From: an uncultured archaeon
GTDB taxonomy: Archaea; Aenigmatarchaeota; Aenigmatarchaeia; QMZP01
Assembly (NCBI GenBank): GCA_964498245.1
Contig: CAZCGK010000002.1
Coordinates: 6,133-70,132, forward strand
Direction: 5' to 3'
DNA: 64,000 bases
Shown: positions 1-20,513 of the stretch, one piece after another
How the letters are laid out: every line of letters begins with the position of its first letter
How positions within the stretch are numbered: position 1 is the first letter of the stretch
Program-made: the position numbers and the translations under genes
The notes under the pieces: model-generated
What the model saw: the letters and a program-made list of their open reading frames with translations, nothing else
The model's database searches: none
Told to the model about the DNA's origin: nothing

Positions 1-12
1 TATTCACAAAGG

Positions 13-201
13 GTGAAAGAGAACCATGAAATAACAAAAATGATAATTCAGAGAGCACTTTTCTCTACCGATTCTACTATTACACAGGATATAGAGGAAA
101 AGGAGATTGAAGAACTTCTGAAAGAACTCGAAAAGGAAGAAGATGAGGATGTTAAAGAAATAATAAAGGAGATTGAAGATGAAAATAAAAAGGGAGAATG
201 A
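13..201 (+). CDS. hypothetical acidic protein, possibly the 3' part of a gene starting upstream of the window
   Basis: The ORF begins with GTG at 13 and the frame stays open back to position 1. The product is Glu/Lys-rich with no recognisable motif. Confidence 0.25.
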   Translation: MKENHEITKMIIQRALFSTDSTITQDIEEKEIEELLKELEKEEDEDVKEIIKEIEDENKKGE

Positions 202-406
202 CAGAATAATATTACATCTTCACAAAGATCTTTACAAGAGTGATTCCATTGATAAAGCGATAGAAGATTTTGCACACCTTTGTAAAATAAAATCAGGCGA
301 AAACGAAAAGTATTTTTTGATCGAATTTGCAGGGGCAGAGGAATTGGAAGAATTGGTTATGGAGTTTGCAAATTATGTACTATCTCTTTTGAAAATTTCA
401 GGGTGA
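173..406 (+). CDS. small hypothetical protein upstream of the rSAM maturase; possible accessory component (HxsD-like or RRE-like) of the peptide-modification cluster
   Basis: A 77-aa ORF lies 4 nt upstream of the rSAM gene on the same strand. It has no catalytic motifs, so its role is inferred from context only. Confidence 0.3.
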   Translation: MKMKIKRENDRIILHLHKDLYKSDSIDKAIEDFAHLCKIKSGENEKYFLIEFAGAEELEELVMEFANYVLSLLKISG

Positions 407-410
407 GTAA

Positions 411-1820
411 ATGCCAGAAAAATACGGAATACTTCCCTATTCCTCATGTAAAATGAATGATGGTTTTCTGATAACCACAATTACAGGTTCTTGGTGTTAT
501 CTCACCTCTAAGGAATTTGCTATGCTTCAAAAAAAACACATAGAAGCAACACTTTACAGAAAACTTGTTGATAGCGGAATCATCATCACAGAAAAAAATG
601 CCAATGCAATTATAACAGAATACAGGCAGATGAACAGGTTTCTTTTTCAGGGACCTTCACTTCATATAGTGGTTCCAACCTTGAGATGCAATCATGAATG
701 TGTTTACTGTCATGCTAAACCGCCTGATGAAAGATACAGCGATATGGATAAAAAAACGGCAATAAATGTTCTTGATTTTATTTTCAGCACCGAAAGTCCG
801 TGTATAGCAATAGAGTTTCAAGGGGGAGAACCTCTATTAAATTGGGATATGGTAAGGTTCATAATAGATGAAGCTAACAGAATTAACGATGAATACGAAA
901 AAAAGGACCTTGAATTACGTCTTGTAACAAATCTTACCGTGATGGATGATGAAAAACTTGAATTTTTACTGGGTGTGAAGAATGCATATATCTGTACATC
1001 ACTTGATGGTCCGGAGACGGTTCATAACAAGAACAGAAAATATAGAGGAGGTGGTGAGACATACAGCGATGTCGTAAAATGGATTGAAAAAATAAAGGAA
1101 AGGTGTAACAGAATAAATGCAATACCCACAATAACCAGATACTCCCTGCCTTATTGGAGAGAGATAATAGATGAATATGTCAAGCACGGATTTGATACAA
1201 TTCATCTAAGATTTCTCAACAAATTAGGTGCTGCCATGAGAAATTGGAATGAAATTTCATACACACCTGAGGAATTTTTACATTTCTGGAAACAATCTCT
1301 TGAGTATATACTGGAACTTAACAAACAGGGTATAAAACTTAAGGAAAGAACAGCAGAAATAATGCTCACAAAGATTCTGGAAAGAAAAGACCCCGGATAT
1401 ACAGAGCTTATGAGTCCATGTGGTGCAGGAAGAACTCAGCTTCTCTACAACTACAACGGTGATATATATACATGTGATGAGGGTAGAATGCTGGGTAATG
1501 ATCTTTTCAAACTGGGAAATGTGAATAAAAACAAATACAGGGATATTGTAAGAAGCGATAATTTTATTGGTATATGTCATGCATCGATTCTCGATAACTA
1601 TTGCGGAGACTGTGTTTTCAAACCTTACTGCGGAACCTGTCCTGTAATGAACTATGTTGAACAAGGAACGCTCGTACCGAAAATAAGAGAAACGATGAGG
1701 TGCAATATATATAAGGAGCAGTTTTTATATTTATTTAACAAGATAATAAATGATGAAGAAGCTTTAGAAGTATTCAAGGGATGGGTGCATGAAGGAGAAT
1801 GTAAAAAAGAAACTACCTGA
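411..1820 (+). CDS. radical SAM/SPASM-domain peptide maturase-like enzyme (HxsB-like candidate)
   Basis: It has the CNHECVYCH CxxxCxxC motif about 90 aa from the N-terminus, a GGEP motif, and a C-terminal Cys cluster (CGDCVFKPYCGTCP) typical of SPASM/twitch auxiliary clusters. About 90 aa precede the core, which could be an RRE-like recognition domain. Confidence 0.75.
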   Translation: MPEKYGILPYSSCKMNDGFLITTITGSWCYLTSKEFAMLQKKHIEATLYRKLVDSGIIITEKNANAIITEYRQMNRFLFQGPSLHIVVPTLRCNHECVYCHAKPPDERYSDMDKKTAINVLDFIFSTESPCIAIEFQGGEPLLNWDMVRFIIDEANRINDEYEKKDLELRLVTNLTVMDDEKLEFLLGVKNAYICTSLDGPETVHNKNRKYRGGGETYSDVVKWIEKIKERCNRINAIPTITRYSLPYWREIIDEYVKHGFDTIHLRFLNKLGAAMRNWNEISYTPEEFLHFWKQSLEYILELNKQGIKLKERTAEIMLTKILERKDPGYTELMSPCGAGRTQLLYNYNGDIYTCDEGRMLGNDLFKLGNVNKNKYRDIVRSDNFIGICHASILDNYCGDCVFKPYCGTCPVMNYVEQGTLVPKIRETMRCNIYKEQFLYLFNKIINDEEALEVFKGWVHEGECKKETT

Positions 1821-2040
1821 AATAAAAAAAAATATAAAAGATTTTATATCCGATGAAAGTGGTTTTGTTTCCAAGGAGAAGATACTTAAAGCAAGTTTTG
1901 CAGTCGGTTTTGCAACTCTCGCTCTTGTAAATACAGCAGCAGCAGATCATACATCACATACAAACAGCATTTCGGGAAGTTTTTCCGGAAGTACTGTTAC
2001 CGGTTCACATACACATCACGGAAGTCATTCAAGTTACTGA
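1789..2040 (+). CDS. candidate RiPP precursor / His-Xaa-Ser repeat peptide (HxsA-like) with a Sec-type signal segment
   Basis: This 83-aa ORF lies immediately downstream of the rSAM gene and overlaps its stop. It has a Lys-rich N-terminal leader and a hydrophobic stretch ending in AAA|D. The C-terminal core DHTSHTNSISGSFSGSTVTGSHTHHGSHSSY is rich in His-Xaa-Ser/His-Xaa-Xaa triplets. Confidence 0.5.
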   Translation: MKENVKKKLPEIKKNIKDFISDESGFVSKEKILKASFAVGFATLALVNTAAADHTSHTNSISGSFSGSTVTGSHTHHGSHSSY

Positions 2041-2073: not shown

Positions 2074-2883
2074 ATGGTTTCGAAAAGGATAAAAGTGATC
2101 ATAAGTTTGATTGTGGTTGTTTTAATTGCTATATTTGTTCTTTTCACTGTAATGAAAAAACCCGAATTGTACAGCAAAGAAGATATAGAGCTTATAATCG
2201 AGAACAACCTTCCTTATATGAAAGAAATTCTTCTTTCTGAAAACCCAGTTTTTGCAGGATGTATTGCATATTCAACTGATAATATTTCGGTTTGCAATGT
2301 ATTGAAAGGAGACGATGAAAAACAAACCTGTCAAAACGATTATTGTATCTATACACTCCTTTCCCATCAGTGCGAAAAAATAGAAAGAAATCAACAAATA
2401 ATGTCCATAAAACCAACAAGTATAATAGCATATATGGAAGTATGTAGAGCACTCAAATCAAAATCCTGTAAAGATCTTTCTGGTGAGATGAAAAAGATAT
2501 GCGAACTACTTATATCACTTAATGCCCAAGATTGTATTTCATTTCCTGAGCTGAACGTGTCAAAATCCGAGTGTAAGAGTTTAGTGTATCTATATGCTGC
2601 TATTTCAAAAAACGATAGTAGTTACTGTGAAAACATACCAAAATTTTATGAAAGAAATGTATGTATATCCCTTGTATCCAAAGGAGAATGTGAAACGGTT
2701 TTGAATGATATTGCAAGAGATTGGATACGCTTTTCTCTCTCCAGAACCTTGTATAATCATACAGATATCTCTTTATGCGACTCCATAAAATATAAGGAAA
2801 TAAAAAAAGCTTGTAAAGATCCATCGATAATTTATGAGGAAATTATAAGAAACTCCGACAATCTGGTTAAGTTAAATCAGTAA
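2074..2883 (+). CDS. Cys-rich membrane-anchored protein (N-terminal TM helix, about 20 Cys in the ectodomain), hypothetical
   Basis: It has the N-terminal hydrophobic helix VIISLIVVVLIAIFVLFTV and many spaced Cys residues. No catalytic motif is recognisable. Confidence 0.45.
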   Translation: MVSKRIKVIISLIVVVLIAIFVLFTVMKKPELYSKEDIELIIENNLPYMKEILLSENPVFAGCIAYSTDNISVCNVLKGDDEKQTCQNDYCIYTLLSHQCEKIERNQQIMSIKPTSIIAYMEVCRALKSKSCKDLSGEMKKICELLISLNAQDCISFPELNVSKSECKSLVYLYAAISKNDSSYCENIPKFYERNVCISLVSKGECETVLNDIARDWIRFSLSRTLYNHTDISLCDSIKYKEIKKACKDPSIIYEEIIRNSDNLVKLNQ

Positions 2884-2898: not shown

Positions 2899-3999
2899 AT
2901 GATTCGACCTGAAAACAATCGCATAGATAAATATCTCTTAAGGGAGTATCTGAAAGAGATAGCAAAGGTTGTGAATTTTTATCAAGGTATAGACGATTAT
3001 TCGGAATACATAAAAAACTTTGAAAATATATTCTGCAAATATATCAATGCAAAACATGCCAAAGCGGTAAATTCGGGAACGGATGCCCTGCAGATATCGC
3101 TTATTTCTTTGGGTATAAAAAGGGGAGATGAAGTAATAGTTCCGGACCTTACATACATATCTACCGGACTTGCCGTGATATATTCCGGTGCGAAACCTGT
3201 GTTTGTAGATGTTAAAAAGGAAGATTTAACAGTTGATGAAAACAAACTCGAGAATGCAATAACAGAAAAAACCAAAGCAATAATCCCTGTTCATATGTTC
3301 GGACATCCGTGCAATATGAAAGTTATAGCAGAAATAGCAGAAAAGCATGATCTGAAGATTATAGAGGACTGTTGTCAGGCGTTTTCCTGCAAAATAAACG
3401 AAAGAATGGTAGGAACGTTCGGTGATGCATCTGCTTTCAGTTTTTCTTATTACAAACCGCTTTCCTCCCTATCTGGTAACGGAGGGATGATAGTGTTTAG
3501 AGATTCAGGACTTGCAAGAAGTATAGAAGATTTGATAAAACTCTGGAAATGTAATGATTTGCTAAAGGTGAGCGGTAGAAAATTTCACAAAATCTCTCTT
3601 GTAGATGTAGCAACGATCCTTGTAAAATTGAAAAACTTCAGGTTGATAGAAAAATCCAGAAAAGAAGCCCAAAAACTTTACAGAGAAAATCTGGAAGAGG
3701 TAGAAGAAATTGAAATTCCAAGTGAAAGAAAAGGTAGAGCCTCTATAATGGAGAATTTTGTGATACTCGTCGAAAAGAGGGATAAACTGATAGAATATCT
3801 GAACAGGAAGGGAATAAAAATAGAACATCCCTACAGACCACTACATACCATAAAGATGTTCGGTTACAAAGCAAAACCTCAGGAATTTTCTGTAACAGAG
3901 AGGTATTATCAAAAAGGGCTTCATTTGCCTTTGTACAGTCTCATGAAACCAGAAGAGGTTGAAAAGGTAACAGAAGCTATCATACATTTTTATTCCTAA
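2899..3999 (+). CDS. DegT/DnrJ/EryC1/StrS-family PLP-dependent sugar aminotransferase
   Basis: It has the GTDALQ motif, the small-domain SFSYYKP PLP-lysine region, and a length of about 366 aa typical of the family. Confidence 0.8.
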   Translation: MIRPENNRIDKYLLREYLKEIAKVVNFYQGIDDYSEYIKNFENIFCKYINAKHAKAVNSGTDALQISLISLGIKRGDEVIVPDLTYISTGLAVIYSGAKPVFVDVKKEDLTVDENKLENAITEKTKAIIPVHMFGHPCNMKVIAEIAEKHDLKIIEDCCQAFSCKINERMVGTFGDASAFSFSYYKPLSSLSGNGGMIVFRDSGLARSIEDLIKLWKCNDLLKVSGRKFHKISLVDVATILVKLKNFRLIEKSRKEAQKLYRENLEEVEEIEIPSERKGRASIMENFVILVEKRDKLIEYLNRKGIKIEHPYRPLHTIKMFGYKAKPQEFSVTERYYQKGLHLPLYSLMKPEEVEKVTEAIIHFYS

Positions 4000-5143
4000 G
4001 CCTTTGCAATTTCTTGTCTATTTCCTTATTAAATTTTATTAAAGGACAGTATCTGCATTCTATCCAGAAATCGTTATCCGTATTTATTTCATATTTGTAT
4101 TTAATTCTGGCTTGATGAAATTTATCAGAATTCCATATTTCTATCAATCTATTACGGTATATGTTACCTACCAAAAACTGCTGATGGTTGCAACAAGGAA
4201 ACACATTCCCGTTGATATCTATATGAACATAATACCATCCAGTGTAGCACCTTATATTATTGGAGGCAAGTGTATTCAAATAAAAGAATCTATTATAACA
4301 AGCATTCTCAAATTGCACAGTTTTTCTGTCGCAATTTATAGACCTTTTAATAATATCAAGCACTTCATATAAGTTTGTTCTGTATTTATATTCTCTTTGA
4401 GCTTTCAACAATTTCTCTATTAACAATTTTAATTCTTTCATTTCCTTAGGTGAAAGTATTAGTGAAGATGTATCGCTATTAGCTTGCATGAGTTTGAACT
4501 CTACATATTCTATACCAAATTTTGAACATATTTTGAGCATTTTGTCTATATCTTTGAAATTATACTTGTTCAAGATGTATACAATATGAACAACAGGTTT
4601 ATTCAGTTTTAATTTATTCTTGCTTTTAATTTCATAGAGAAACTTCAAATTTTTTAAAACCCTGTAAAACATTTTATCAGAGCCACCTGCTTGTAGAAAC
4701 CCGTGTTTTTTTGGTGAAACTGCAGAAAGATTTACCCTTATTAAATCAATTTCTAGCATATGTTTCAAATGCTTAGGATGAATGCTGAGATTTGTATCTA
4801 TCATTACCCTTATGTCACTTTTCTTTGCATATTTTATCATCTTAAAAATATCTGGATGCAGAGTAGGTTCTCCCTCTCCTAAAATAGATATCTGCTCCAC
4901 TCCCATGATACGGGAATCATCCACAATTTCTTTAAATTTTTCAAAAGGAAGTGCTTTTTTCTTTTTGCTTTTTTTGACAAATTTCGAATGATACCAGCAA
5001 AATACACATTTGAAATTGCAGAATGAATTTACATGGAGCTTTACGCATCTAGGTCCTACAAAAACCTTATCCAGATATGCACCAAGAAGCCTTAGACTTT
5101 CTGGGGATGCATTATATTTTTGATACCTTTCTATAAACTCCAT
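3980..5143 (-). CDS. radical SAM protein with a C-terminal SPASM/twitch-like Cys cluster
   Basis: It has the CNFKCVFCW CxxxCxxC motif and a GEGEP motif. The C-terminal Cys motifs CCNHQ...CRYCP are SPASM/twitch-like. Confidence 0.75.
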   Translation of the reverse strand: MEFIERYQKYNASPESLRLLGAYLDKVFVGPRCVKLHVNSFCNFKCVFCWYHSKFVKKSKKKKALPFEKFKEIVDDSRIMGVEQISILGEGEPTLHPDIFKMIKYAKKSDIRVMIDTNLSIHPKHLKHMLEIDLIRVNLSAVSPKKHGFLQAGGSDKMFYRVLKNLKFLYEIKSKNKLKLNKPVVHIVYILNKYNFKDIDKMLKICSKFGIEYVEFKLMQANSDTSSLILSPKEMKELKLLIEKLLKAQREYKYRTNLYEVLDIIKRSINCDRKTVQFENACYNRFFYLNTLASNNIRCYTGWYYVHIDINGNVFPCCNHQQFLVGNIYRNRLIEIWNSDKFHQARIKYKYEINTDNDFWIECRYCPLIKFNKEIDKKLQRLRNKNV

Positions 5144-6185
5144 ACCACTCCCTTATTTCTCTTTCAGGATTGAAATGCTTTTTAACAGTCATATATCCAT
5201 TCTGTCCAAGGGAATACATTTTTTCTCTGTTATTGTAAATTTCAATTAGTTTTTCATATATTTCTTCACCAGAAAACGGCTCAACAAGCAGACCGTTGTA
5301 TTCGTGTTTTATTATCTCTTCTGTTCCGCCAACCCTTGTGGCTATCACGGGAATGCCAAGAGACATCGCTTCAAGAACCGCATTGGGAAAACCCTCAAAC
5401 AGAGAGACCTGCACATAAACATCAAACATCTGCATCTCCTTCAAAACATCTTCATGTTTCATCACACCTTTTATTACAATTTTGTGTTTGATACCGGTTT
5501 TTTCCACGGCTTTTAAAAAATTAGAATTATCCGTTTTGCTTGCTCCGATCAGGACAAGTCTAGAATCCGGAATCTTGCTTGCAAATACTTTAAATGCATC
5601 CAAAAGATATTTCCAGCCTTTCAGCTTTCTTATATCACCTAAATATGAAACGTTTCCCACGATGAATTCTTTGCTTCTTTTTCTCTTACAATTTGGAATT
5701 TCAACGGAATTGTTTATAACTTCTGTTCGGGTTTTTCTTCCTGTAATTTTTTCAAATATCTTTAGATGCATTTTGCTAACAGAAACAATATATTTAGCAT
5801 TTTTTGCGACAATGTTACAAACATCAGAAATGGTGTTTAAAATATGGGAACCTCTCAAACCCACGATTGAGGGTTTGTCCAATAGGGAAGCTGCCTTTAC
5901 AGCAATCAAACCATCCGGCTCTATATCAAAACCGTGAATCACATCAAAATCCAATCTCTCATCAAGCCTTTTAATCACCTCAACAGCATTGTTTTCGAAA
6001 TGATTTAGTCTGTAGATAAAAACTCTATTGTTCTTCTGAAATTTGCTTCCACCCCTTCCGGTTATAATATGAAATTCGATTCCTTTGTATCTCTTTACCA
6101 TTCCGTTTACAATCCTTTTTAGCGATACGCTCCTTCCACCAAGTGGTTGCGTGCTGAAATCATTGGAGATGATGCATATTCTCAT
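5112..6185 (-). CDS. glycosyltransferase family 4 (GT-B, retaining)
   Basis: The C-terminal EGFPNAVLEAMSLGIPVIAT E-x7-E motif is typical of GT4. Confidence 0.8.
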   Translation of the reverse strand: MRICIISNDFSTQPLGGRSVSLKRIVNGMVKRYKGIEFHIITGRGGSKFQKNNRVFIYRLNHFENNAVEVIKRLDERLDFDVIHGFDIEPDGLIAVKAASLLDKPSIVGLRGSHILNTISDVCNIVAKNAKYIVSVSKMHLKIFEKITGRKTRTEVINNSVEIPNCKRKRSKEFIVGNVSYLGDIRKLKGWKYLLDAFKVFASKIPDSRLVLIGASKTDNSNFLKAVEKTGIKHKIVIKGVMKHEDVLKEMQMFDVYVQVSLFEGFPNAVLEAMSLGIPVIATRVGGTEEIIKHEYNGLLVEPFSGEEIYEKLIEIYNNREKMYSLGQNGYMTVKKHFNPEREIREWYGVYRKVSKI

Positions 6186-6916
6186 TTTATTCCTCCTGCT
6201 TCGCTCAGCCTTAGAAACTCTGCACCAGTTTTTAGCAAGTACTTCAAAAATATTGCAAGATTTTTGAACCCGTCTGCATCAAAGACATGATGATGCATGT
6301 ATATGCCTATTACAGGCATGGTTTCTCTAAGTAAAATGAATTTTGCTATCACATCTCTGATATTTGAATTTTCCAGACAAAGCGATACCGGTACAAAGGA
6401 AAAACCATATTTTTTCATATCGAATTTTGCTGGTTTTTTGGCTGAGAATATTTTGAAGCCCAGAATATCAACAGCCTTTAAAGTGTTCTCATCATATTTA
6501 TGGTATGGCGGTGTGAATGCAGGTATGAAGTCCCTCTTAAAAAAATTTTCCATAATCTCTTTGCCCCTTTCTATCTCCTCTCTCTGTTTTTCATAAATCC
6601 TTCCGAAGAATTCAAACTTTATCATTTCACTGCCGTAATTCTTATGTATGTATCCATGCTGACCATATTCTATCAGCTCAGGATTTTCTTCCTTAATCCA
6701 CCTGAGCCTTTTTGCAGATTCCTCTGTAAGTTTTCCCGGTATTACAGCATGGTGAATTGGTATTTTCTTTTTGATAAAAATTCTGGATAGTGTCATAAAC
6801 TTTTTGTCTGCATCAAACACATCATCATTTCTAAAAAACACCTTGATCGTGTCCATTTCATTCACATATTTTTTTAAGTCCACGATACAAATTCTCGAGA
6901 CCATTATACCATTCAT
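6182..6916 (-). CDS. putative polysaccharide deacetylase-like protein (divergent)
   Basis: It has FRNDDV and HGYIH motifs reminiscent of a NodB-type metal site. The assignment is tentative. Confidence 0.4.
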   Translation of the reverse strand: MNGIMVSRICIVDLKKYVNEMDTIKVFFRNDDVFDADKKFMTLSRIFIKKKIPIHHAVIPGKLTEESAKRLRWIKEENPELIEYGQHGYIHKNYGSEMIKFEFFGRIYEKQREEIERGKEIMENFFKRDFIPAFTPPYHKYDENTLKAVDILGFKIFSAKKPAKFDMKKYGFSFVPVSLCLENSNIRDVIAKFILLRETMPVIGIYMHHHVFDADGFKNLAIFLKYLLKTGAEFLRLSEAGGIK

Positions 6917-8003
6917 TTTTTATCTTTACATGCATATTTTTCTCAATCTGCTTTTTTATTTCCTCAGCTATTTTCTCAGGTGAAAGTTTATCATATCTTA
7001 TCACAGAGGAACCTAACAAATCCTTCATCATTCTTGCACGGGATACCTGCTCCATCTCTTTCATATAGGGAATGAGCACGGCTTTTTTTCTAAACCACAT
7101 TGTTTCAACAGATGTATTGTAACCGCACATGCTTACGGACACATCGCACATACTCAAATAATCTGTAAACTCTGCATTCGGAAGAAAGCTGAAGGTTTTT
7201 ACATTTTTGAATCCTTTTGAAAGTTTATCAAATATATTTATCTCTTTTTTGGTAGATGCAGGACCATAGCATACAAACATGAAATATTCATTTCCCAAAA
7301 ACCTCAGAGACATTATAGATTTTGCTATTATACCGGGATAAACCACACCACCACCTCTACTCACAAGTACAATCTTCTTATGCATTTCACGCTTGATTTT
7401 TTTCTTTTCTTTCTCTGAAAACACATAACCTGTGAAGATAATCTTTCCTTTCAATTTTCTAAAAAAATTGACATATTCCTCTGCTTTCTCTTTTAATGCT
7501 ACTTTCATATATTCGTATTCAATTTCTGGTGTATGAATAAAAAGCCTGTCAAAGCCTTTAGAATATTCAAGTATTTCTTCTGTTCTGTTCAAATCTAACG
7601 CAGGATATCCTATGGATGCGCATATCTTGGTTTCGGGCATGGTTTTTCTCATCCAGAGGATGAAGGGATAAAGCTCATACTTCCCTTCGGATCTTCCGAA
7701 GGGAAAAAACTCTGTTAAGAAAAGATCCGGTTTGAACCTTTTCACAATGCTTTTCATGATAAAAAGCCTTTTTCTTATTTTTCCCGTATCCAAGGGCATT
7801 CCAGCTCTGTAAAACTCCCTTCTATCCCGGAGCGGATAAGGAAGGTTCACAATCTCTATATCCGAAAAATCCACATCCTGCTTCTTTCCGCCGTTGAGAA
7901 TGAGAATTTGAGTTCCTTTGCTTTGCAAACACCTCGCTATTCTCAGTGTTCTTGTGGTATGTCCCAGGGTTTCCCTGTGAGTATAATACATCATTATTTT
8001 CAT
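6858..8003 (-). CDS. GT-B fold glycosyltransferase (GT1/GT28-like)
   Basis: It has a two-domain size of about 380 aa and the N-terminal YYTHRETLGHTTR motif. It is translationally coupled to the flanking genes. Confidence 0.5.
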   Translation of the reverse strand: MKIMMYYTHRETLGHTTRTLRIARCLQSKGTQILILNGGKKQDVDFSDIEIVNLPYPLRDRREFYRAGMPLDTGKIRKRLFIMKSIVKRFKPDLFLTEFFPFGRSEGKYELYPFILWMRKTMPETKICASIGYPALDLNRTEEILEYSKGFDRLFIHTPEIEYEYMKVALKEKAEEYVNFFRKLKGKIIFTGYVFSEKEKKKIKREMHKKIVLVSRGGGVVYPGIIAKSIMSLRFLGNEYFMFVCYGPASTKKEINIFDKLSKGFKNVKTFSFLPNAEFTDYLSMCDVSVSMCGYNTSVETMWFRKKAVLIPYMKEMEQVSRARMMKDLLGSSVIRYDKLSPEKIAEEIKKQIEKNMHVKIKNEWYNGLENLYRGLKKICE

Positions 8004-8959
8004 ATAATATCCCTATTGCAGCCTTTCAAAAAACCATGATAGGATAGGCATTTCGGACATTTTCCCTTTAGTGCTTTTTCGATCACAGCTTTTCTCTTTC
8101 CTTCCTCTACAATTCCGGTATGGATGTTACCTACAGGGTCCTGATAAAGACAGGGAAAAATATTACCTCGGGAATCGATAAATAGGGATGTTTTTGGTGT
8201 GAGGCACTTTTTTATAAAATTCAGGTCTGGGTTTTCTGTAAACTTCACAAGTTGCACAATCCATAAATTGTTTTTACCCTTGTATTTATCCTTTAGAATT
8301 TTTAACAGATCTATTTTGGTGTGTTTCAGTTCTCTTCGAGAAAGCTGTATAATCTTGGTTTCTTTTATACGATGATAATACCTGCTTAAATACTCACCAA
8401 ATTTAGGTTCGAAAAAACAACCAAGTTTTTTAGCTAATTCATAAATACTGTAAAGATCCTTATAATTAAGCTTGGTTATTACTGTTTTTATCGAAATCGG
8501 TATAAAAGGATATCTCCTTTTTATCATTCGAATGGTTTTTACTGTTTTTTGAAATGCATTATTCATACCGCGCTGAAGATTATGGGTCTCCTTTAAACCG
8601 TCAAGGCTTATCCCAAATTCCGTACCATGAAGAATAGCTTTACTGTTTTTCAGAAATTCAAGGATTTTTTCTGTGGCATAACCATTTGTCGTAATGTTTA
8701 TAGATATTACCCTTTTCTTGATATATAAAAAATAGAGATATCTGTATATTTTTTCAAATTCCGGGTGAAGAAAACACTCACCTCCTGTGAGAGAGATAGA
8801 AAGCCTGTTTTCAAATTTGCTGACAAAACTCAAAATATTCACCAAATCCAGATCATTTATTTCCCTTTCCTTCCATATACTGCACATTCTACATTTAAGA
8901 TTACATCTATTGGTTATTTCAAATGTAAGGTTTTTTACATCCTCTAAACATTTACTCAT
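8000..8959 (-). CDS. radical SAM protein with a SPASM/twitch-like C-terminal Cys cluster
   Basis: It has a CNLKCRMCS CxxxCxxC motif near the N-terminus and C-terminal CLYQ...CPKCLSY cysteines. Confidence 0.7.
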   Translation of the reverse strand: MSKCLEDVKNLTFEITNRCNLKCRMCSIWKEREINDLDLVNILSFVSKFENRLSISLTGGECFLHPEFEKIYRYLYFLYIKKRVISINITTNGYATEKILEFLKNSKAILHGTEFGISLDGLKETHNLQRGMNNAFQKTVKTIRMIKRRYPFIPISIKTVITKLNYKDLYSIYELAKKLGCFFEPKFGEYLSRYYHRIKETKIIQLSRRELKHTKIDLLKILKDKYKGKNNLWIVQLVKFTENPDLNFIKKCLTPKTSLFIDSRGNIFPCLYQDPVGNIHTGIVEEGKRKAVIEKALKGKCPKCLSYHGFLKGCNRDII

Positions 8960-10272
8960 TCCACCACCAGCGGATCCTCTGCATAATAGCTACCAAAAAC
9001 CTTTTTTGCCATGGTTCTGCTCCCACCTTTGCATACAGGATAGATTTCGCATACTTTACATCTTTCAGGAAGATACTCAAGATTCCTCAGTTTTTTCATT
9101 AGAGTGCTGTTCCATGCAGCATTTATATTTTTCCACGTACCTGCAACATCATCCGAATAATAAACAGGTTTCACATCACCGTTTACAGATATTACCATTC
9201 TATCCCTTCCATCATCCATAAAACCACCCAGGGAAAACACTCGTGCAGTAAAACCTTCTCCAAGAAAACAAAACGGAAAAGCGTTTGTTATCACACTTCG
9301 TGTTCCAAATTTTTCGTAAAATTTTAATGAATGATTGAAAAAGGAACAGAGAGACTTTTTTTCAGCCTCCGCATGAATTAATCGATAGTTTTCATGAACG
9401 AGCCCGAGCTTTTTCTTGATAAGAAGAAATATATCGAAAAGCGAATCACGATTTTTTTCATTGATAACAGTCCCTGCTCTCAGAAATATCCGAGGATTGA
9501 TTCTTTTTATTTTCAGAACGGTTTTGAGCTTATTTTTGAAACTGTAAGGATTTCCTGTGATTTTGGCTTCCCCTTTGGGTGTAGAGTGATGAAGAGGAAT
9601 GAGAACAGAATCTGTATGTTTTATTATATCAGTGTAATGTTTGTTATCCGTAAATGTTCCGTTGGAATTTATCCATACCTCCATTTTAAGTGATTTTGCA
9701 TATTTAACATAGTTGTATAAATTTGAATCCATAAAAGGTTCTCCGCCGGTGAATCTTATTCTCCTGATACCCATTTTATATGCTTGATTTATTACCGAAA
9801 AAACCACTTCCGAATCTATGAATTCATAATCATGTTTTGGAGAAAAACAAAAAAAGCAATTAAGATTGCATTTTGATGTTATCTCTATTGAAATTTCTTT
9901 AGGCAGATCCTTTACCGGCTCTGGGTTATTAGAAAAATCTTCTGGAAAACCTGCACAAAATCTGTTGAATTTACACTCTTTACACTGTGGAGATTTTGTT
10001 TTGTGGTTGCTCGATATATTTATTATATGCTCTTCTGCATCAGGGAGTATGCAGTAGGGAAGGTTAAAGAATATCATGCTCGTTTTTTCTTCAAATCTAT
10101 TAATGAGTGTATAAAGTACGGACCTGATTTTGAAAAAATCAGGAGGATTCTTGCTATCAAAGATTACATCAACCAGAGGTATATTTCGAGTTTCAAGCAG
10201 CTTGATTAAAGAGATGAGATTTTTCACATTTTTTTTGTTTATTTGCAGTGTGAGTTTTTCGGAATTCAGCAT
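8956..10272 (-). CDS. radical SAM/SPASM protein with an N-terminal extension of about 130 aa
   Basis: It has a CNLNCFFCF CxxxCxxC motif, a GGEP motif, and a C-terminal CKVCEIYPVCKGG cluster. Its N-terminal extension contains a CKECKFNRFC motif. Confidence 0.7.
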   Translation of the reverse strand: MLNSEKLTLQINKKNVKNLISLIKLLETRNIPLVDVIFDSKNPPDFFKIRSVLYTLINRFEEKTSMIFFNLPYCILPDAEEHIINISSNHKTKSPQCKECKFNRFCAGFPEDFSNNPEPVKDLPKEISIEITSKCNLNCFFCFSPKHDYEFIDSEVVFSVINQAYKMGIRRIRFTGGEPFMDSNLYNYVKYAKSLKMEVWINSNGTFTDNKHYTDIIKHTDSVLIPLHHSTPKGEAKITGNPYSFKNKLKTVLKIKRINPRIFLRAGTVINEKNRDSLFDIFLLIKKKLGLVHENYRLIHAEAEKKSLCSFFNHSLKFYEKFGTRSVITNAFPFCFLGEGFTARVFSLGGFMDDGRDRMVISVNGDVKPVYYSDDVAGTWKNINAAWNSTLMKKLRNLEYLPERCKVCEIYPVCKGGSRTMAKKVFGSYYAEDPLVVE

Positions 10273-10289
10273 ACTTAACCAATCTATTT

Positions 10290-10310
10290 TTGGAAAATAT
10301 ATAAGTATTA
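10290..10310. promoter_or_regulatory. candidate bidirectional archaeal promoter (TATA-like AAAATATATAAG) between the divergent rSAM operon and the surface-protein gene
   Basis: An AT-rich TATA-like element sits about 25-30 bp upstream of both divergent start codons (10272 minus strand, 10330 plus strand). This suggests leaderless transcripts. Confidence 0.25.
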
Positions 10311-10329
10311 GAAGTAAAAAATAAAAAGT

Positions 10330-13300
10330 ATGAAACAGGTGACCATTTCACTAATTGTTTGCATATTTTCCTTCCTGATTCTTCTGCAACTGAGCGCTGC
10401 AGAAACTCTGACTTGTTATATAAAAGACCCTTCAGGAACTGCTATACGAAGCAGTCAAACTACCTTTGGATTCTATACAAGTGCAACATATACATGTTCA
10501 GCATCATGCCCTTCTTCGGATTCTTCATGTTGCCAGAAAGAAGGACAATACACTTGGCAGGTGGTTTCAAGTTATGACGGAAGCACAGTTTCAGGAAATG
10601 CATACTATGTCAACTGGGATGGTTCCTCTACCTGGTGCTCTTGTCATGGTGATACTTGGGTAAGCAGCGTTTCCAAGTGCTGTGGTGATGATGGTTCAGC
10701 TGATGATTGGTGTGCTGGTGGATATACAAGTTGTTATGATGGTGTTTACTATACAGATGGTGATTCAAATTCCTATACATGTTCCTGTGGCGGAGGTTAT
10801 TGGAACATAGGTGGTGAAGTTGCTGGAAGTTCTTGTTGCGGTGATGATTCAGGAGAGTACAGAAGAACACGCCAGGCTGGAACAGATTCCACATATTCAT
10901 CCGATTCTAACGATGATGCGTGTTGCAATGCAAACAACAAATGTGTATATAATTCTGTATGTTACGCTTCTACTTCAACGTTAGGCTCGATACCCAATAA
11001 GAATTACTGTGATAACGGTGTTTGGGTAGGCGGAGATGCTTCTGAAACAGCCTGCACAGCAATTGCTGGTTCAGGAAGGTGGAGTATAGGCGGAGAAGTG
11101 GCTGCCACAACATGCTGTGGTGATGATTCTGGTGAAAATTACAGGATATGCCAAGATAATAATGAAGGATATTGCGCCAGATCGAGTGATAATACTGCAT
11201 GTTGCGATTCACAATATGATTGTGTATTTGATGATACATGCTATTCTTCTGGAACTGTGCAAGGACAGTGGAGGTGCGAATCCGGGACATGGCATGATTT
11301 TATACCACCTGTTACAACGGATGATGCAACCAGTACATGGACGAATACGGATCAAATAGTCACATTAACCTGTGATGATGATGCAGGTTCAGGCTGTGAT
11401 ACAGTCAGATACTGTATAGGTTCAAATACATGCACTCCAGAAATAACAGAATATGATATTTCAAGTGGTTCTTACAAGGTCTCTGTGACATGCCCAGCCG
11501 GTTCGGTATGCAAACAGTATGTAAGATACCAGTCAAAGGATAAGGCAGGAAACTGGGAAGATATTAAAACCTCAGCAGAAACGAGAATAGATAAAGAAAA
11601 ACCAACAACTTCCATAAAACTTTCCGGAGTCGAAGGGGATAATGGCTGGTATGTATCTGATGTTACGGTGACACTTTCTTGTGATGACGGTAGCGGTTCA
11701 GGCTGTAGTGAGACTTACTATTGTGTGGACCAATCTGATTCCTGTACACCAAGCGTGAAATACACAGGACCATTTTTAATTTCAAATGAAGATATAAACT
11801 ATGTTCGATATCATTCAAAGGATAATGTTGGGAATGTAGAAGATGTTAAATCCACCGAAGTCAAAATAGATAAGACACCACCAACAGCATGGATAAACCC
11901 TCTTCCTGAATGGACGAATTCAAGTGATGGTTCTGGTGATGTATATTTTGATGTATACTGGAATGGAGATGATGGACCTACCGGTTCAGGAATAACGAGT
12001 TACAGCATTCAGTATATAATATACAACAGAGCAACTGGAAATTATGTCACAAATAACTGCGGAACAGCTGATTGGTGTGATTGGATTACAAGGGATGAAA
12101 CAGATCCGAAACAGGAAATATTTGGTCTTCTGGACAATCCCGAAAATGTAGAGGCATTCAACAATCACACATTTCTTTTCAGAATAAGTGCAAAGGATAA
12201 TGCAGGAAATGTAATGGATTATTCTATAAACCCACCCTGGGAAAATACATCTATCGATGTGGTTTCTCCTGTAAGCGCAATATCTACTGTATCCTATCCA
12301 GGAGAACTCATAGTAGAGGCTTTCTGGCAGGGTTGGGATAATGAATCAGGAGTAGCATACTATGATGTTCAAAGCAATATGAGCGGCTCTTGGGATTATC
12401 TCACAGATACAGACGGAAACAGTACATATCATACTACAAAAACTTCAGGTAATTTCAGTGTTTCATCCGATGGAATTTACTATTTCAGGGTAAGAGCAGT
12501 AGATAGAGCAGGAAATGTAGAAACCCCCTGGAAATACAGCTCGGTTCTTGTGGATGTTTCACCTCCTGTTGCTTGGATGGAAGAGCCCTATAATGAATGG
12601 ATGAAATTTTATAATTTCACTGTAAATTGGTCCGGATACGATACAGGTAGTCCACCTTCTGGAATCAAATGTTACGATGTTCAGTGGAGTAATGATACGA
12701 TAAACTGGAACTATATCCAATACAATGAATTTGGTGATTTGACAGAGTGTGTACTTCTAACGGAAACCATATTCGGCCTTTACGGATTTACTGATTTAAA
12801 AGATGGCATTACATACTATTTCAGAGTTAGAGCTACAGACAATAATGGAAATATCGGTAACTGGAGTGTGAAAAACACAACAATAGATACGTATTCTCCC
12901 GTTATTATAGTTAACGTAACAGACGATAAAGGAAGAGAGATAATAGAAGGCTATGTTCCAGCAGATGTAAAAAACATTACCATAACCTCAATGGCATGGG
13001 ACAACATTTCAGGTATAAAAAAGCATACCATTCACTATTGGCTCACTCAAAACAACAAATACACATACGGTGAAAAGGAATGCGGCGAAGCACTACCATG
13101 GGGAGATTGGAGTAACTGTTCCATAACCTTTGCTTATGATGAAGACACGGTGATCAAATATTATGTGAAGGCAGAGGACAGAGCAGGAAATGTAAATACA
13201 ACACCGATAAGGTTTACAACCTCTCACCCCCTTGCAAATTTTGTAATTCACCAGGCAGCTATCGGTTTGGGAGATTCAATTCTTCTTAAAGTTCAGGTGA

Positions 13301-13662
13301 GAAACATCCAAGAAACCGTGGACAATATAACCATATCCATTGAAAGCACGATCACCTCAGCAAAACCAAAATTTGAAAATATAGGCTCTGGAGATTTTGA
13401 AATTCAGGCAGACGGAAAGGTCTTACAAGTTTATAACTTAAATCCAATGGAAGAAAGAGAATTTTTTGTGAGAATATATTCCAGCGAGATAGGGACCTAT
13501 TATCTGAACATGACAGCTCAATCAAACGTTGCACAGCCGGGTCTTATTGATACAGACAGTGCAAAAATAATTATCGGTTATCCCCCTTCATTCCCCGGTC
13601 TTGCACCATGGAGTATTCTCCTGCTTGTAATACTTTCGGTTACGATTTTCTTAATTATTTAA
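10330..13662 (+). CDS. large secreted Cys-rich surface protein with Ig-like repeats and a C-terminal PGL+TM sorting-like tail
   Basis: It has a signal peptide and N-terminal about 330 aa with repeated CCGDDSGE/CCGDDGS Cys motifs. These are followed by repeated (F/Y)R(V/I)(R/S)A(x)D(x)AGN(V/I) Ig-like/FN3-like modules. The C-terminus is PSFPGLAPWSILLLVILSVTIFLII. Confidence 0.65.
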   Translation: MKQVTISLIVCIFSFLILLQLSAAETLTCYIKDPSGTAIRSSQTTFGFYTSATYTCSASCPSSDSSCCQKEGQYTWQVVSSYDGSTVSGNAYYVNWDGSSTWCSCHGDTWVSSVSKCCGDDGSADDWCAGGYTSCYDGVYYTDGDSNSYTCSCGGGYWNIGGEVAGSSCCGDDSGEYRRTRQAGTDSTYSSDSNDDACCNANNKCVYNSVCYASTSTLGSIPNKNYCDNGVWVGGDASETACTAIAGSGRWSIGGEVAATTCCGDDSGENYRICQDNNEGYCARSSDNTACCDSQYDCVFDDTCYSSGTVQGQWRCESGTWHDFIPPVTTDDATSTWTNTDQIVTLTCDDDAGSGCDTVRYCIGSNTCTPEITEYDISSGSYKVSVTCPAGSVCKQYVRYQSKDKAGNWEDIKTSAETRIDKEKPTTSIKLSGVEGDNGWYVSDVTVTLSCDDGSGSGCSETYYCVDQSDSCTPSVKYTGPFLISNEDINYVRYHSKDNVGNVEDVKSTEVKIDKTPPTAWINPLPEWTNSSDGSGDVYFDVYWNGDDGPTGSGITSYSIQYIIYNRATGNYVTNNCGTADWCDWITRDETDPKQEIFGLLDNPENVEAFNNHTFLFRISAKDNAGNVMDYSINPPWENTSIDVVSPVSAISTVSYPGELIVEAFWQGWDNESGVAYYDVQSNMSGSWDYLTDTDGNSTYHTTKTSGNFSVSSDGIYYFRVRAVDRAGNVETPWKYSSVLVDVSPPVAWMEEPYNEWMKFYNFTVNWSGYDTGSPPSGIKCYDVQWSNDTINWNYIQYNEFGDLTECVLLTETIFGLYGFTDLKDGITYYFRVRATDNNGNIGNWSVKNTTIDTYSPVIIVNVTDDKGREIIEGYVPADVKNITITSMAWDNISGIKKHTIHYWLTQNNKYTYGEKECGEALPWGDWSNCSITFAYDEDTVIKYYVKAEDRAGNVNTTPIRFTTSHPLANFVIHQAAIGLGDSILLKVQVRNIQETVDNITISIESTITSAKPKFENIGSGDFEIQADGKVLQVYNLNPMEEREFFVRIYSSEIGTYYLNMTAQSNVAQPGLIDTDSAKIIIGYPPSFPGLAPWSILLLVILSVTIFLII

Positions 13663-16302: not shown

Positions 16303-17075
16303 ATGTTCAATTTTATTTTATAGCTTAAATAGATTATTAGAAGAATGATAAGCATTAAAATGATAATAAACGGAGCAAAAGCATCAGACCGAGATTTTTC
16401 CTTTTTCAGAAGGACTGTTTTCTTTTGAATGAAATTTCCGTCCTCTGTGATTAAAGTAAATTCAACAGAGGATTCCTTCCAGATCGATGGTCTGTACGGT
16501 ATTCTTGCTTTTTTTATCTGTCCGGAGTTCATGAAATCTATCCTTGCTGATTCCATTATCCAACCAACAGGGTATTTACTGGGAATTACAATCAGATTTT
16601 TGACATCCTGATTACTTCTTATGTAAATATCTATATAATCATCGAATGTATGAACATCTACTATTTCAAAATTACCGGCTTTGCTTTTCTTTGGTTTTCC
16701 TTCAAAATAATATGGACCGAATTTAAAAATCTCGTTGCAAAAATATATTCTTACATATACTGTATAGTTTCCCTCAGGCAGATTCGAGTAAATATCCATA
16801 TCAGCATGGCTCCCTGGCCATAAAGGCTTTGCCCTGCTCCAGCCTGTGTACACAAGTTTAGAAGTATTATAGAAATCTGCTCTTGCTCTTACCTCGCATC
16901 CAACAGAACCGATATTTTCCCATGTAATTGAGATTTTCTGGGGAGGCTTTGTGCTTATGTTTATCCATGCAAGACTTCCCTGTATTACACTTTCTACATT
17001 CACATCAACATCCAGAGCCGCAACTGCAGGTATTAAACCCATAACCAATAGAACAGTAAAAAATCTCACATTCAT
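16281..17075 (-). CDS. secreted protein with a C-terminal membrane anchor, hypothetical
   Basis: It has a signal peptide and a C-terminal TM segment. Confidence 0.45.
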   Translation of the reverse strand: MNVRFFTVLLVMGLIPAVAALDVDVNVESVIQGSLAWINISTKPPQKISITWENIGSVGCEVRARADFYNTSKLVYTGWSRAKPLWPGSHADMDIYSNLPEGNYTVYVRIYFCNEIFKFGPYYFEGKPKKSKAGNFEIVDVHTFDDYIDIYIRSNQDVKNLIVIPSKYPVGWIMESARIDFMNSGQIKKARIPYRPSIWKESSVEFTLITEDGNFIQKKTVLLKKEKSRSDAFAPFIIILMLIILLIIYLSYKIKLNIWRAGRD

Positions 17076-17103
17076 TTCACCACCCTTAACTTTTGATCTT
17101 TTT

Positions 17104-18084: not shown

Positions 18085-18195
18085 AGAATTATATACGAAT
18101 CAAATCAATAAAAATCTTGGAGACGGTTTTTTAAAGTTAACAAAGCAATCACTTACATGAAGATTTAAATATCACCTCGCCACTATATATATAAC

Positions 18196-19047
18196 ATGAA
18201 ACAAAGAATTGTTTCACTATTATTCGTTTCTGCCATGCTTCTGTGTTTTGTAGGATTGGTGATTGCAGCTACTGATACCGATACAGCAACATTCGATGTA
18301 ACAGTTTCTTCCATAGTGATGATTGATATACAGCCAAACTCAACCAGCTGGACTGCATATCCAGGAAATACAACATCTGCAGTTGATTTTTCTTTGGTAA
18401 ATATAGGTTCATCAAACATAACAAGTATCTATCTTACTGCCACAGAGCCAAGCTCCATGCCCTTCGGAACAACCACAGCAACAAACTGGGATGCAGGAAA
18501 CTTTCTAGAAGTAAGCAATGATACAGGAACTACATATTATTTTGTCAACAGAGTAGAGTTTAATGAAAGCGATTGGCCGGATTATTTAACCTTACCATCG
18601 AATGCTAAGGCTGTAGGAAGATTCAGGATAGCGGATAATGAATACTTCTGGGCTCTCGAAAGCGGTTTGGTGAACTGCAGCAACGGAACAATATATATAG
18701 GAACCACACCGCATACACCATCAGATAGTGGTGATACAAATCTTACAGATAATTCCCATACATTACAACAAGACGGAAGCTTGACTCATGGTCTGGTTGA
18801 TGCAAAGATAGGCAACCAGTGGTACTGCATCGTAGTAGATGCGGATTGCACCAAGGTGAGGATGGTTAAGTGGAACATCCAATATGATGAGGATGCTGGA
18901 AAGTGTACAAACGATGGATATGTTTACACAGGAACATTGTTACCAGGAGAGAGCTTTGAAATAAAGGTAAGGGCAAGAATACCCTTGGGTGTTGCAAGCG
19001 GTGATGTCACTACAGGAACACTCACGGTTACAGCAAGCGATACATAG
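18196..19047 (+). CDS. secreted protein, hypothetical
   Basis: It has an N-terminal signal peptide and a Thr/Asn-rich product. Confidence 0.45.
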   Translation: MKQRIVSLLFVSAMLLCFVGLVIAATDTDTATFDVTVSSIVMIDIQPNSTSWTAYPGNTTSAVDFSLVNIGSSNITSIYLTATEPSSMPFGTTTATNWDAGNFLEVSNDTGTTYYFVNRVEFNESDWPDYLTLPSNAKAVGRFRIADNEYFWALESGLVNCSNGTIYIGTTPHTPSDSGDTNLTDNSHTLQQDGSLTHGLVDAKIGNQWYCIVVDADCTKVRMVKWNIQYDEDAGKCTNDGYVYTGTLLPGESFEIKVRARIPLGVASGDVTTGTLTVTASDT

Positions 19048-20511: not shown

Positions 20512-20513
20512 TA

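Follow-up and report, generated by a model that had tools for sequence, protein, structure and literature searches.

Radical-SAM and carbohydrate genes beside a His-Xaa-Ser peptide system in an aenigmatarchaeal genome

Background

The His-Xaa-Ser (HXS) system comprises HxsA, HxsB, HxsC and HxsD, is organised as a four-gene D-B-C-A unit and lies to 99.7% in Pseudomonadota (Li et al., Nat Commun 2026, PMC13128918). In E. coli HxsA is matured in the cytoplasm and the periplasmic product blocks the entry of phage DNA, probably electrostatically; the paper makes no mention of a glycosyltransferase or of archaea (PMC13128918). Models TIGR03976-TIGR03979 represent the families of this system. Here we describe a locus in a 64,000-nucleotide stretch of DNA from an uncultured archaeon of the Aenigmatarchaeota (contig CAZCGK010000002.1, positions 6,133 to 70,132 of the forward strand; the whole stretch is called the window) in which six overlapping minus-strand genes (3980-10272) for three radical S-adenosylmethionine enzymes (radical SAMs, rSAMs), two glycosyltransferases (GTs) and a predicted deacetylase converge on a plus-strand operon that contains HxsB.

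Judged by sequence the six genes are the sugar-building half of a cluster of about 15 genes whose conservation extends from DPANN archaea into several uncultivated phyla of bacteria. We read them as the tailoring half of a system of that size around an Hxs-type rSAM-matured peptide, with amino sugars assembled on the acceptor and remodelled by radical chemistry, and we give this reading an even chance; its chemistry, acceptor, donor sugars and rSAM reactions are what we infer. The acceptor is most likely the HxS peptide encoded at 1789-2040, the most widely conserved candidate. An earlier note on this DNA had judged the gene combination to be no standard surface-glycan architecture and no standard ribosomally synthesised and post-translationally modified peptide (RiPP) architecture, and our analysis agrees. 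The note had also suggested a glycosylated or thioether-cross-linked product or a radical-modified sugar. A glycosylated, radical-modified peptide or a radical-modified sugar remains the best reading, whereas a thioether cross-link is unsupported as the HxS peptide of the window contains 0 Cys.

Organisation of the locus

The two operons comprise the following genes, given with their position in the window, strand, length in amino acids (aa) and model scores.

1-201, plus strand: C-terminal end of a 499-aa fusion of a PapB-like rSAM and an HxsD domain, the gene beginning upstream (8292-9791 of the source contig, L170)
179-406, plus strand: HxsD-like small protein, 75 aa (NF038315 67 bits, cut-off 41)
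411-1820, plus strand: HxsB radical-SAM/SPASM maturase of the His-Xaa-Ser system (TIGR03978 459.7 bits, cut-off 370)
1789-2040, plus strand: HxsA3-like precursor peptide, 83 aa (NF038309 42.2 bits, under the cut-off of 65)
2074-2883, plus strand: membrane-anchored Cys-rich protein, 269 aa, 15 Cys, which travels with the Hxs module
2899-3999, plus strand: DegT/DnrJ/EryC1-type pyridoxal-phosphate-dependent sugar aminotransferase (PF01041 304 bits), last gene of the plus-strand Hxs operon
3980-5143, minus strand: rSAM387, radical SAM with a SPASM/twitch-type auxiliary-cluster domain, 387 aa (Pfam Radical_SAM 71 bits, SPASM 49 bits)
5112-6185, minus strand: GT4 glycosyltransferase (GT-B fold), 357 aa (Glycos_transf_1 115 bits)
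6182-6916, minus strand: DUF2334/NodB-fold (CE4-like) deacetylase, 244 aa (DUF2334 48.5 bits, Polysacc_deac_1 28.4 bits)
6858-8003, minus strand: GT28-like GT-B glycosyltransferase with a MurG/Alg13-type C-terminal domain, 381 aa (Glyco_tran_28_C 44 bits)
8000-8959, minus strand: rSAM319, radical SAM whose auxiliary domain is of the twitch type, 319 aa (Radical_SAM 64 bits and a weak SPASM match in Pfam)
8956-10272, minus strand: rSAM438, HxsC-like radical SAM, 438 aa (Radical_SAM 63 bits, weak SPASM in Pfam)

The earlier note had described the six minus-strand genes as overlapping and all six open reading frames (ORFs) are present in 3980-10272, with neighbours sharing 4, 4, 59, 4 and 32 nt in the order from the rSAM438 gene to the rSAM387 gene. 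The 59-nt overlap between the GT28-like and deacetylase genes is a product of choosing the start of the longest ORF. Homologues of the deacetylase start about 5 residues ahead of the FFRNDD motif, so that the true start is likely the ATG at 6856-6854, 1 nt past the GT28 stop at 6860-6858, and the coupling of the six genes is tight whichever start applies. As each of the six has homologues and the gene order recurs on independent contigs these are real genes and not chance reading frames. Rfam and tRNA scans gave no match inside the cluster.

On the source contig, which is metagenomic (ENA ERZ27248349, 143.7 kb), genes for an A24-like peptidase and a PaaK-like ligase precede plus-strand genes in the order AsnB-like amidotransferase, rSAM+HxsD fusion, HxsD-like protein, HxsB, HxS peptide, Cys-rich membrane protein and DegT. 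From the AsnB-like gene to DegT they overlap or are separated by gaps of at most 33 nt, and this run converges on the six-gene operon, the DegT gene adjoining the rSAM387 gene with a 20-nt tail-to-tail overlap. The whole unit is flanked by Nop5 at one end and a surface protein at the other. The sugar aminotransferase that had been pointed out beside the operon is indeed there; its gene closes the Hxs operon, and a sugar enzyme is thus transcribed together with the Hxs genes.

Other parts of the earlier description need adjusting. Its HxsB-like call is correct by the curated score, and HxsB and the three operon rSAMs do lie within 10 kb; a fifth rSAM, the 499-aa fusion, begins just upstream of the window. 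To count HxsB as simply a fourth rSAM was to underrate it, for we see in it the key to the context, with the operon as half of a composite Hxs-type system. The adjacent membrane protein had been credited with 20 Cys and in fact has 15 (2074-2883).

Conservation of the cluster in archaea and bacteria

Loci compared here carry L numbers, of which L007 is from Planctomycetia and L013 from Planctomycetales. The cluster is syntenic in relatives, as the proposal of the earlier note required. L171 has the same order (rSAM438, rSAM, GT28, DUF2334, GT4, rSAM, rSAM), L003 has nearly the same operon, L002 and L004/5 have the same families rearranged, and in L167 the cluster forms a clean island between topoisomerase/transketolase and DNA ligase genes. 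Orthologues of rSAM319 (35-51% identity, about 40 clusters) sit with GT28, DegT, DUF2334 and 387-type rSAM genes. Those of the GT28-like protein were found in L002-L005, L007, L011, L018, L087, L164-L169 and L171, those of the GT4 in L003, L087, L018 and L171, and those of DegT (32-48% identity) in the same clusters in L002, L004/5, L007, L086 and L164-L168. L087 carries GT28, GT4, DUF2334 and rSAM438 with no rSAM319 orthologue within the stretch examined.

We judged linkage to HxsB within 10 kb of the sugar-module genes, over the stretches examined of about 14 informative loci. HxsB falls within this distance in 8 of them (L001, L002, L007, L013, L087, L164, L167, L168), which span archaea, Planctomycetota, Omnitrophota-like bacteria and others, and L086 carries an HxsD gene. 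HxsB was not found in about 60 unrelated loci from the same scan and the linkage of Hxs genes to the sugar module is therefore not due to chance.

The HxS peptide and its Hxs partners

The leader of the window's HxS peptide is charged and contains FIxDExG; the peptide also has a hydrophobic helix, and its tail is rich in His, Ser and Thr with SHSSY at the end. Similar peptides are encoded beside HxsB in L002, L087, L164, L167, L168, L007, L011, L013, L017, L115, L120 and L150, and the peptides adjoining HxsB have in common a basic leader ending F-x-x-D-E-x-G, a hydrophobic helix, a His/Ser/Thr-rich tail and a C-terminal H-x-S-Y. The window peptide has only 3 H-x-S/T motifs; the number of repeats is 3-5 in loci with the full sugar module and 15-25 in L011, L017 and L150.

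Two further features of the peptide were considered. A prepilin-type G|FxxxE site is only a suggestion, with the Gly conserved and the +5 Glu not. An N-glycosylation sequon in the conserved H-S-N-S/T motif is ruled out, the +2 residue being Ile or Leu.

The 499-aa fusion matches the PapB model at 104 bits (cut-off 340) and the HxsC model at 42 bits (cut-off 267.9), and its residues 374-458 match the HxsD model TIGR03976 at 41.3 bits (cut-off 50). Window positions 1-87, which code for part of it, match HxsD proteins that stand alone in L087, L007 and L012. The Cys-rich membrane protein gave no Pfam or NCBIfam match, and in L002 and L087 its homologues come directly after the HxS peptide; L164 and L167 gave weaker matches.

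Two kinds of radical SAM in the operon

All three operon rSAMs have a CxxxCxxC motif and C-terminal auxiliary cysteines, features that would place them among the SPASM/twitch enzymes as the earlier note had it. They are not equivalent, however, and appear to be of two kinds, with rSAM438 an HxsC-like peptide maturase and rSAM319 and rSAM387 members of families with a twitch pattern. None reaches any family cut-off in a scan of the curated NCBIfam models. The best scores relative to cut-off were 92 bits for W_rSAM_matur (cut-off 380), 79.5 for AhbD (500) and 67.5 for MoaA (284), and AlbA gave 55 (850). PDB sequence searches with the cluster rSAMs returned only generic rSAM matches, apart from a match of the rSAM387 auxiliary domain to BtrN.

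These scores bear directly on whether the enzymes might be housekeeping rSAMs (MoaA, PflA/NrdG activases, enzymes of tRNA or haem) whose place among glycan genes is incidental. Weak matches to MoaA, AhbD/NirJ and the tungsten-cofactor maturase are all that speaks for it; the matches are 4- to 10-fold under the curated cut-offs and the orthologues always occur in the same specialised cluster, so we give the idea next to no credence. The earlier note had likewise taken the enzymes to be something other than MoaA, PflA or tRNA-modification proteins.

Residues invariant in alignments of rSAM438 with its homologues are C74, H82, C97, C100 and C106, a Cys/His motif belonging to an extra N-terminal domain, then C135/C139/C142, and, as a C-terminal motif of four Cys, C335, C405, C408 and C414. 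Its Pfam SPASM score is weak, as is that of rSAM319 (19 and 17 bits for the two). HxsC is among its best curated matches (TIGR03977, 67.3 bits, under the cut-off of 267.9) and its extra N-terminal domain gives a match (E 2e-5) to the C-terminal tail of that model. Related genes lie beside HxsB in L007, L011, L012, L013, L016, L019, L087, L115, L120 and L152. Shorter relatives fill the HxsC position next to HxsB in four of these (L012, L016, L019, L152) and in L087 rSAM438 is the sole second rSAM alongside HxsB, HxsD and the HxS peptide. Genes like those of A24-type peptidases occur in 22 related loci, often immediately upstream of the rSAM438 gene. Close homologues are rare (13 clusters, 42-55% identity, all metagenomic). 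An AlphaFold2 (AF2) model of rSAM438 (predicted local distance difference test, pLDDT, 87.1) has the RiPP maturases SuiB, SkfB and CteB as its nearest folds in Foldseek. Because of the similarity to its best family, the tail motif and the position beside HxsB in many loci we assign rSAM438 as a predicted HxsC-like peptide-maturase paralogue, not an HxsC equivalog.

A wider family of 438-aa-type rSAMs (30-34% identity) with the same N-terminal Cys domain occurs in L006 and L089-L135, in contigs resembling the Candidate Phyla Radiation and others, mostly with no Hxs genes. In 17 of these loci a conserved protein of about 68 aa is encoded nearby downstream of the rSAM, mostly directly after it (motif ..FL.T.T.F......GK.L.TFL..N.FPY.E..G.K..I..L.D; for example L089 11343-11549 and L092 11362-11571). 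The loci also hold several rSAMs of about 310 aa, GT4, a GT-C-like membrane protein and B12-rSAMs, together with proteins that look Sua5-like, TsaD-like and ATP-grasp from their sequences.

The other two enzymes share a different set of cysteines. In rSAM319 C19/C23/C26, C252, C270 and C304 are invariant and C301 is present in at least 90% of 41 sequences, and in rSAM387 C42/C46/C49, C299, C317/318, C363 and C366 are conserved in 18 homologues. Both families thus keep four to five auxiliary cysteines in the arrangement C...C...CxxC, which is consistent with a single-cluster twitch pattern as in BtrN. The BtrN match is the best PDB match of the rSAM387 auxiliary domain (34 bits) and is confined to it; BtrN is not among the top folds of the rSAM319 model. 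That model (AF2, pLDDT 92.5) has SkfB, BlsE, CteB, anSME and DesII as its nearest folds in Foldseek, and the neighbours of the rSAM319 and rSAM438 models taken together mix peptide maturases (SkfB, SuiB, CteB, anSME) with sugar and nucleotide enzymes (BlsE, DesII, viperin). Against curated models rSAM319 scored 60.8 bits with HxsC (cut-off 267.9) and 58 with PapB (cut-off 340).

Domain fusions give a clearer direction. DUF2334+rSAM319 fusions occur in four lineages (L002, L004/5, L013, L168), and L086 encodes a GT2+DUF2334+rSAM protein of 972 aa and a GT28+GT4+rSAM protein of 1109 aa whose rSAM is of the 387-aa type. A profile search of the rSAM319 clade returned 682 representatives (50% identity) at E<=1e-30, and among them are the fusions GT28_C+rSAM, GT2+rSAM+rSAM and, in a protein of 1941 aa, GT2+GT2+GT4+rSAM+rSAM. 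As independent fusions to carbohydrate enzymes recur they suggest consecutive steps on one carbohydrate-bearing substrate, and fusion to DUF2334, GT28, GT2 and GT4 points to a carbohydrate as the likely substrate of the rSAM319 type. Three proteins, P0356 (1941 aa), P0335 and P0311 (both about 1170 aa), have 2-3 glycosyltransferase domains and two 319-type radical-SAM/SPASM modules per polypeptide.

The fusions also bear on the idea that the operon rSAMs are sactipeptide/ranthipeptide-type thioether maturases acting on a Cys-rich surface or membrane protein. Their nearest folds do include SkfB, CteB and SuiB, PapB is the top-scoring model for the 499-aa rSAM upstream (104 bits) and Cys-rich proteins flank the cluster. 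However the 319-type enzymes are fused to carbohydrate enzymes and not to peptide-recognition domains, every score is far under its family cut-off, the conserved precursor in the window has no Cys, and the regions rich in Cys are secreted domains of large size, as is typical for folds held by disulfide bonds. We regard a thioether function as very improbable.

Glycosyltransferases, deacetylase and accessory genes

The GT28-like protein matches MurG at 37.5 bits (cut-off 250), with the match limited to the C-terminal nucleotide-sugar domain, and at this score it is not MurG. The GT4 protein matches the Pfam family 'GT4 in conflict systems' (GT4-conflict) at 30.7 bits (threshold 26) and retains an E-x7-E motif read from its sequence; its best curated matches, all under their cut-offs, are BshA (91 bits), EpsE and SdgA. 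The deacetylase matches PF10096 (48.5 bits, threshold 26) and PF01522 (28.4 bits, threshold 23.1), and 13 homologues conserve the DUF2334 motifs R-[DN]-D-D, Q-H-G-x-x-H, F-x-P-P and H-H, metal-site motifs by which it is predicted to be a CE4/NodB-fold metal-dependent de-N-acetylase. PDB sequence searches found no solved close relative for the GT28-like or DUF2334 proteins. The closest solved relatives of DegT are a glutamine--scyllo-inositol transaminase (7b0d, 204 bits) and QdtB, which mark it as an ordinary sugar or cyclitol aminotransferase.

Accessory genes vary by lineage and include an AsnB-like amidotransferase, a PaaK-like ligase, a nucleoside-diphosphate (NDP)-sugar dehydrogenase, a ketosynthase - acyl carrier protein - ketosynthase (KS-ACP-KS) set and an aminoglycoside phosphotransferase (APH)-like kinase. 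The KS - ACP - KS-like genes are in bacterial versions from Planctomycetia and Omnitrophica (L007 4404-6705, L165 12562-14842), and an APH/choline-kinase-like gene is in L165 and L169. These genes are hints of an acyl or phosphoryl decoration with no counterpart in the archaeal window. About 20 kb from the cluster a GlmU-like gene (NTP_transferase + hexapeptide) and GlmS adjoin each other (29744-32785, minus strand), possibly a local supply of UDP-N-acetylglucosamine.

The enzymes invite comparison with pathways to a stand-alone small molecule or glycolipid, such as an aminoglycoside-like or aminocyclitol-like compound or an N-acylated amino-sugar lipid, with Hxs an independent neighbour. The enzyme logic fits butirosin (BtrM/BtrD/BtrN/BtrS) or the hopanoid cyclitol ethers (HpnI/HpnK/HpnJ), bacterial versions contain KS-ACP-KS genes and APH-like kinases, and the PaaK-like ligase of archaeal versions suggests acylation of a freed amine. 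What makes such a product quite unlikely is that the cluster has no 2-deoxy-scyllo-inosose synthase, other scaffold-forming gene or exporter, that the Hxs linkage recurs across two domains of life, and that sequence similarity to BtrN does not extend beyond the auxiliary domain (34 bits) and there is none to HpnJ or HpnK.

Peptide tailoring or surface glycan

Divergently transcribed from the operon is the following gene, described earlier as encoding a Cys-rich surface protein and a plausible substrate.

10330-13662, plus strand: secreted surface protein, 1110 aa, Cys-rich in its N-terminal third, with Ig-like/OmpL47-type domains and anchored in the membrane by its C-terminus

The protein is indeed Cys-rich, with 47 Cys, 31 of them within the first 330 aa. 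In L003, L004/5, L086 and L171 homologues are encoded divergently to the rSAM438 gene, and only among close archaeal relatives is this neighbourhood conserved; none was found in L002, L087 or the bacterial loci. Because it is absent from the bacterial versions we rank it after the HxS peptide, as a lineage-specific and secondary candidate target that is possibly, and not certainly, a member of the system. Its start and that of the rSAM438 gene are 57 nt apart (10273-10329), which implies a very compact control region common to both transcription units.

With this neighbour the operon could belong to a general surface-glycan pathway in which an unusual amino sugar is built on a lipid carrier and passed to envelope proteins (the 1110-aa, S-layer and pilin-like proteins), Hxs being nearby only as an envelope or variable-region gene. 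The 1110-aa protein has 19 N-X-S/T sequons where 13.8 +/- 3.2 are expected, the accessory genes (NDP-sugar dehydrogenase, AsnB-like, PaaK-like) vary among relatives as they do in glycan loci, GlmS and GlmU-like genes lie 20 kb off and a polyprenyl synthase adjoins the cluster in L171. Several observations favour this pathway and at the same time weigh against peptide tailoring. GT28/MurG/Alg13-type enzymes, which the GT28-like protein resembles, usually use lipid-linked acceptors, and the surface protein accompanies the operon in 5 of the 8 loci from close archaeal relatives, among which it is as constant as Hxs.

Further points count against our preferred reading of peptide tailoring. About 6 of the 14 informative loci (L003, L004/5, L165 at a contig end, L166, L169 and L171) have no HxsB within the 10 kb examined. 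Neither the HxS peptide of the window nor rSAM438 reaches its curated cut-off (HxsA3 and HxsC, respectively), the fold of the rSAM319 model is as near to SkfB as to BlsE and so does not separate peptide from sugar substrates, and the cluster has no transporter or oligosaccharyltransferase.

A surface-glycan pathway on its part would leave three things unexplained, namely the co-occurrence of HxsB, HxsD and an HxS peptide with the same sugar genes in bacteria that have no surface protein (Planctomycetota, Omnitrophota-like, others), DegT as the last gene of the Hxs operon, and an operon that opens with an HxsC-like peptide maturase. The cluster also has no initiating phosphoglycosyltransferase, flippase or oligosaccharyltransferase. 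We hold the surface-glycan explanation to be unlikely while giving it real weight.

Proposed pathway

If the operon does tailor an Hxs-type peptide, HxsB, the rSAM+HxsD fusion and rSAM438 would modify the HxS core in the cytoplasm, with HxsD-type proteins presenting the leader. The GT28-like and GT4 enzymes would put N-acetylhexosamine (HexNAc) or hexose on the acceptor and the DUF2334 enzyme would strip the N-acetyl group. The twitch rSAMs might then abstract a hydrogen from the sugar, turning a hydroxyl into a ketone as BtrN does or causing a rearrangement, and DegT could turn the ketone into an amine to give a cationic diamino sugar to which the AsnB-like and PaaK-like enzymes may attach amide or acyl decorations. 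Cleavage at the conserved Gly by an A24-type peptidase would free the product of its leader, and it would be exported and displayed outside the cell.

By analogy with E. coli HXS the product may act as an envelope barrier against viruses, and one may speculate that a cationic amino-sugar decoration would suit an electrostatic block of phage DNA. The antiviral role is drawn purely by analogy from a proteobacterial system of four genes, a point that also counts against the reading as a whole. In its fullest form the reading would make the locus a new class of ribosomal product, that is an HxS-repeat peptide matured by three peptide-type rSAMs, whose amino sugars would be remodelled on the acceptor by a new clade of twitch rSAMs (through oxidation and transamination or carbocycle formation) to a cationic 'aminoglyco-peptide' that DPANN archaea, Omnitrophota, Planctomycetota and their relatives would carry on the envelope, there forming a barrier to the entry of viral DNA. 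Taken with all its parts we regard this as a tentative and rather doubtful proposal.

Whatever the product, the 319-type fusions define a sizeable clade of apparently carbohydrate-directed rSAMs (the 682 representatives), and the sugar pathway joined to the peptide machinery holds at least two rSAMs of uncharacterised chemistry. The cluster offers concrete substrates in the form of the 83-aa peptide, UDP-HexNAc and a defined enzyme order. If the HxS peptide is the acceptor, the locus would represent a new RiPP-like class and possibly an envelope defence in episymbiotic, ultra-small cells.

Flanking region

Beside the cluster 13864-26451 is a block of large secreted or family-less proteins, among them an 812-aa NPCBM_assoc/CARDB-like protein, several ORFs with no family match and a 1707-aa NosD/beta-helix protein, and it looks like an envelope-protein island. 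An S-layer-like gene (32865-33797) follows the GlmU-like/GlmS pair. A tRNA match of 140 nt at 33836-33975 on the plus strand (Rfam 55.6 bits, unreported by ARAGORN) has a length that implies an intron, an archaeal hallmark, and Nop5, aIF5B and Kae1 genes are present. Among named sequences the nearest to this aIF5B come from Candidatus Aenigmatarchaeota (60-64% identity), which makes a DPANN archaeon the likely host. A 526-aa fragment 100% identical to the aIF5B of the window (50430-52187; P0109) is labelled 'translation initiation factor IF-2, partial [Spirochaetes bacterium]' at NCBI and probably stems from a mis-binned contig.

Comparison with known systems

Our literature search found no description of an extended HXS cluster or of the GT- and deacetylase-fused rSAM clade, and no characterised member of the 319-type clade. 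A PADLOC 2023 scan gave only generic rSAM-core matches to pVip, the collection containing no HXS model.

The locus shares its logic with several pathways. Like mycofactocin (MftA, MftB, the rSAM/SPASM MftC and the glycosyltransferase MftF) and the glycocins it combines an rSAM/SPASM-processed peptide, a small chaperone and a cluster-encoded glycosyltransferase, but its precursor and rSAM families are unrelated, and it has five rSAMs, two of which apparently have the sugar as their substrate.

In the bacteriohopanetetrol cyclitol ether pathway HpnI is a GT2 enzyme, HpnK a deacetylase and HpnJ an rSAM, and the calditol synthase of Sulfolobus is also an rSAM. The order of glycosyl transfer, de-N-acetylation and remodelling of an amino sugar by an rSAM would be the same here, and the GT2+DUF2334+rSAM protein of L086 mirrors it in one polypeptide. 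The deacetylase and rSAM families differ, however, there are no hopanoid or tetraether lipid genes, and the acceptor is probably not a lipid.

The 2-deoxystreptamine logic of butirosin and neomycin likewise brings together a glycosyltransferase, a deacetylase, a twitch rSAM and a DegT-type aminotransferase in one cluster (BtrM, BtrD, BtrN, BtrS), and the C...C...CxxC pattern of rSAM319 and rSAM387 resembles the single-cluster twitch of BtrN, the 387-aa family having one more, adjacent Cys. Unlike butirosin the locus has no inosose synthase, its deacetylase is of the NodB/DUF2334 and not the LmbE fold, its rSAM cores are only distantly related to BtrN and its pathway is tied to a ribosomal peptide system. 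The likeness to BtrN is one of shared logic and not of family membership.

The closest comparison is with HXS itself. As there, HxsB is a true family member by its curated score, an HxsD-like protein and an HxsD domain are present together with a second, HxsC-like rSAM, and a precursor with His-x-Ser/Thr motifs is encoded beside HxsB and is probably exported after maturation in the cytoplasm. In contrast to HXS the host is a DPANN archaeon, the curated HxsC and HxsA cut-offs are not reached, and the precursor has 83 aa and a pilin-like leader and helix with no peptidoglycan-binding domain, which HxsA of HXS has (PMC13128918). The gene order is rSAM+HxsD, HxsD-like, HxsB and HxsA, with the HxsC-like gene on the opposite strand at a distance of 7 kb. 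The locus adds an rSAM+HxsD fusion, a membrane protein rich in Cys and, most notably, at least 8 further genes, whose products would serve sugar transfer, deacetylation, radical chemistry, transamination and amidation. Both the Hxs family and an antiphage function for it were already known; what is new is a much larger version, wired to a sugar pathway, in archaea and uncultivated bacterial phyla.

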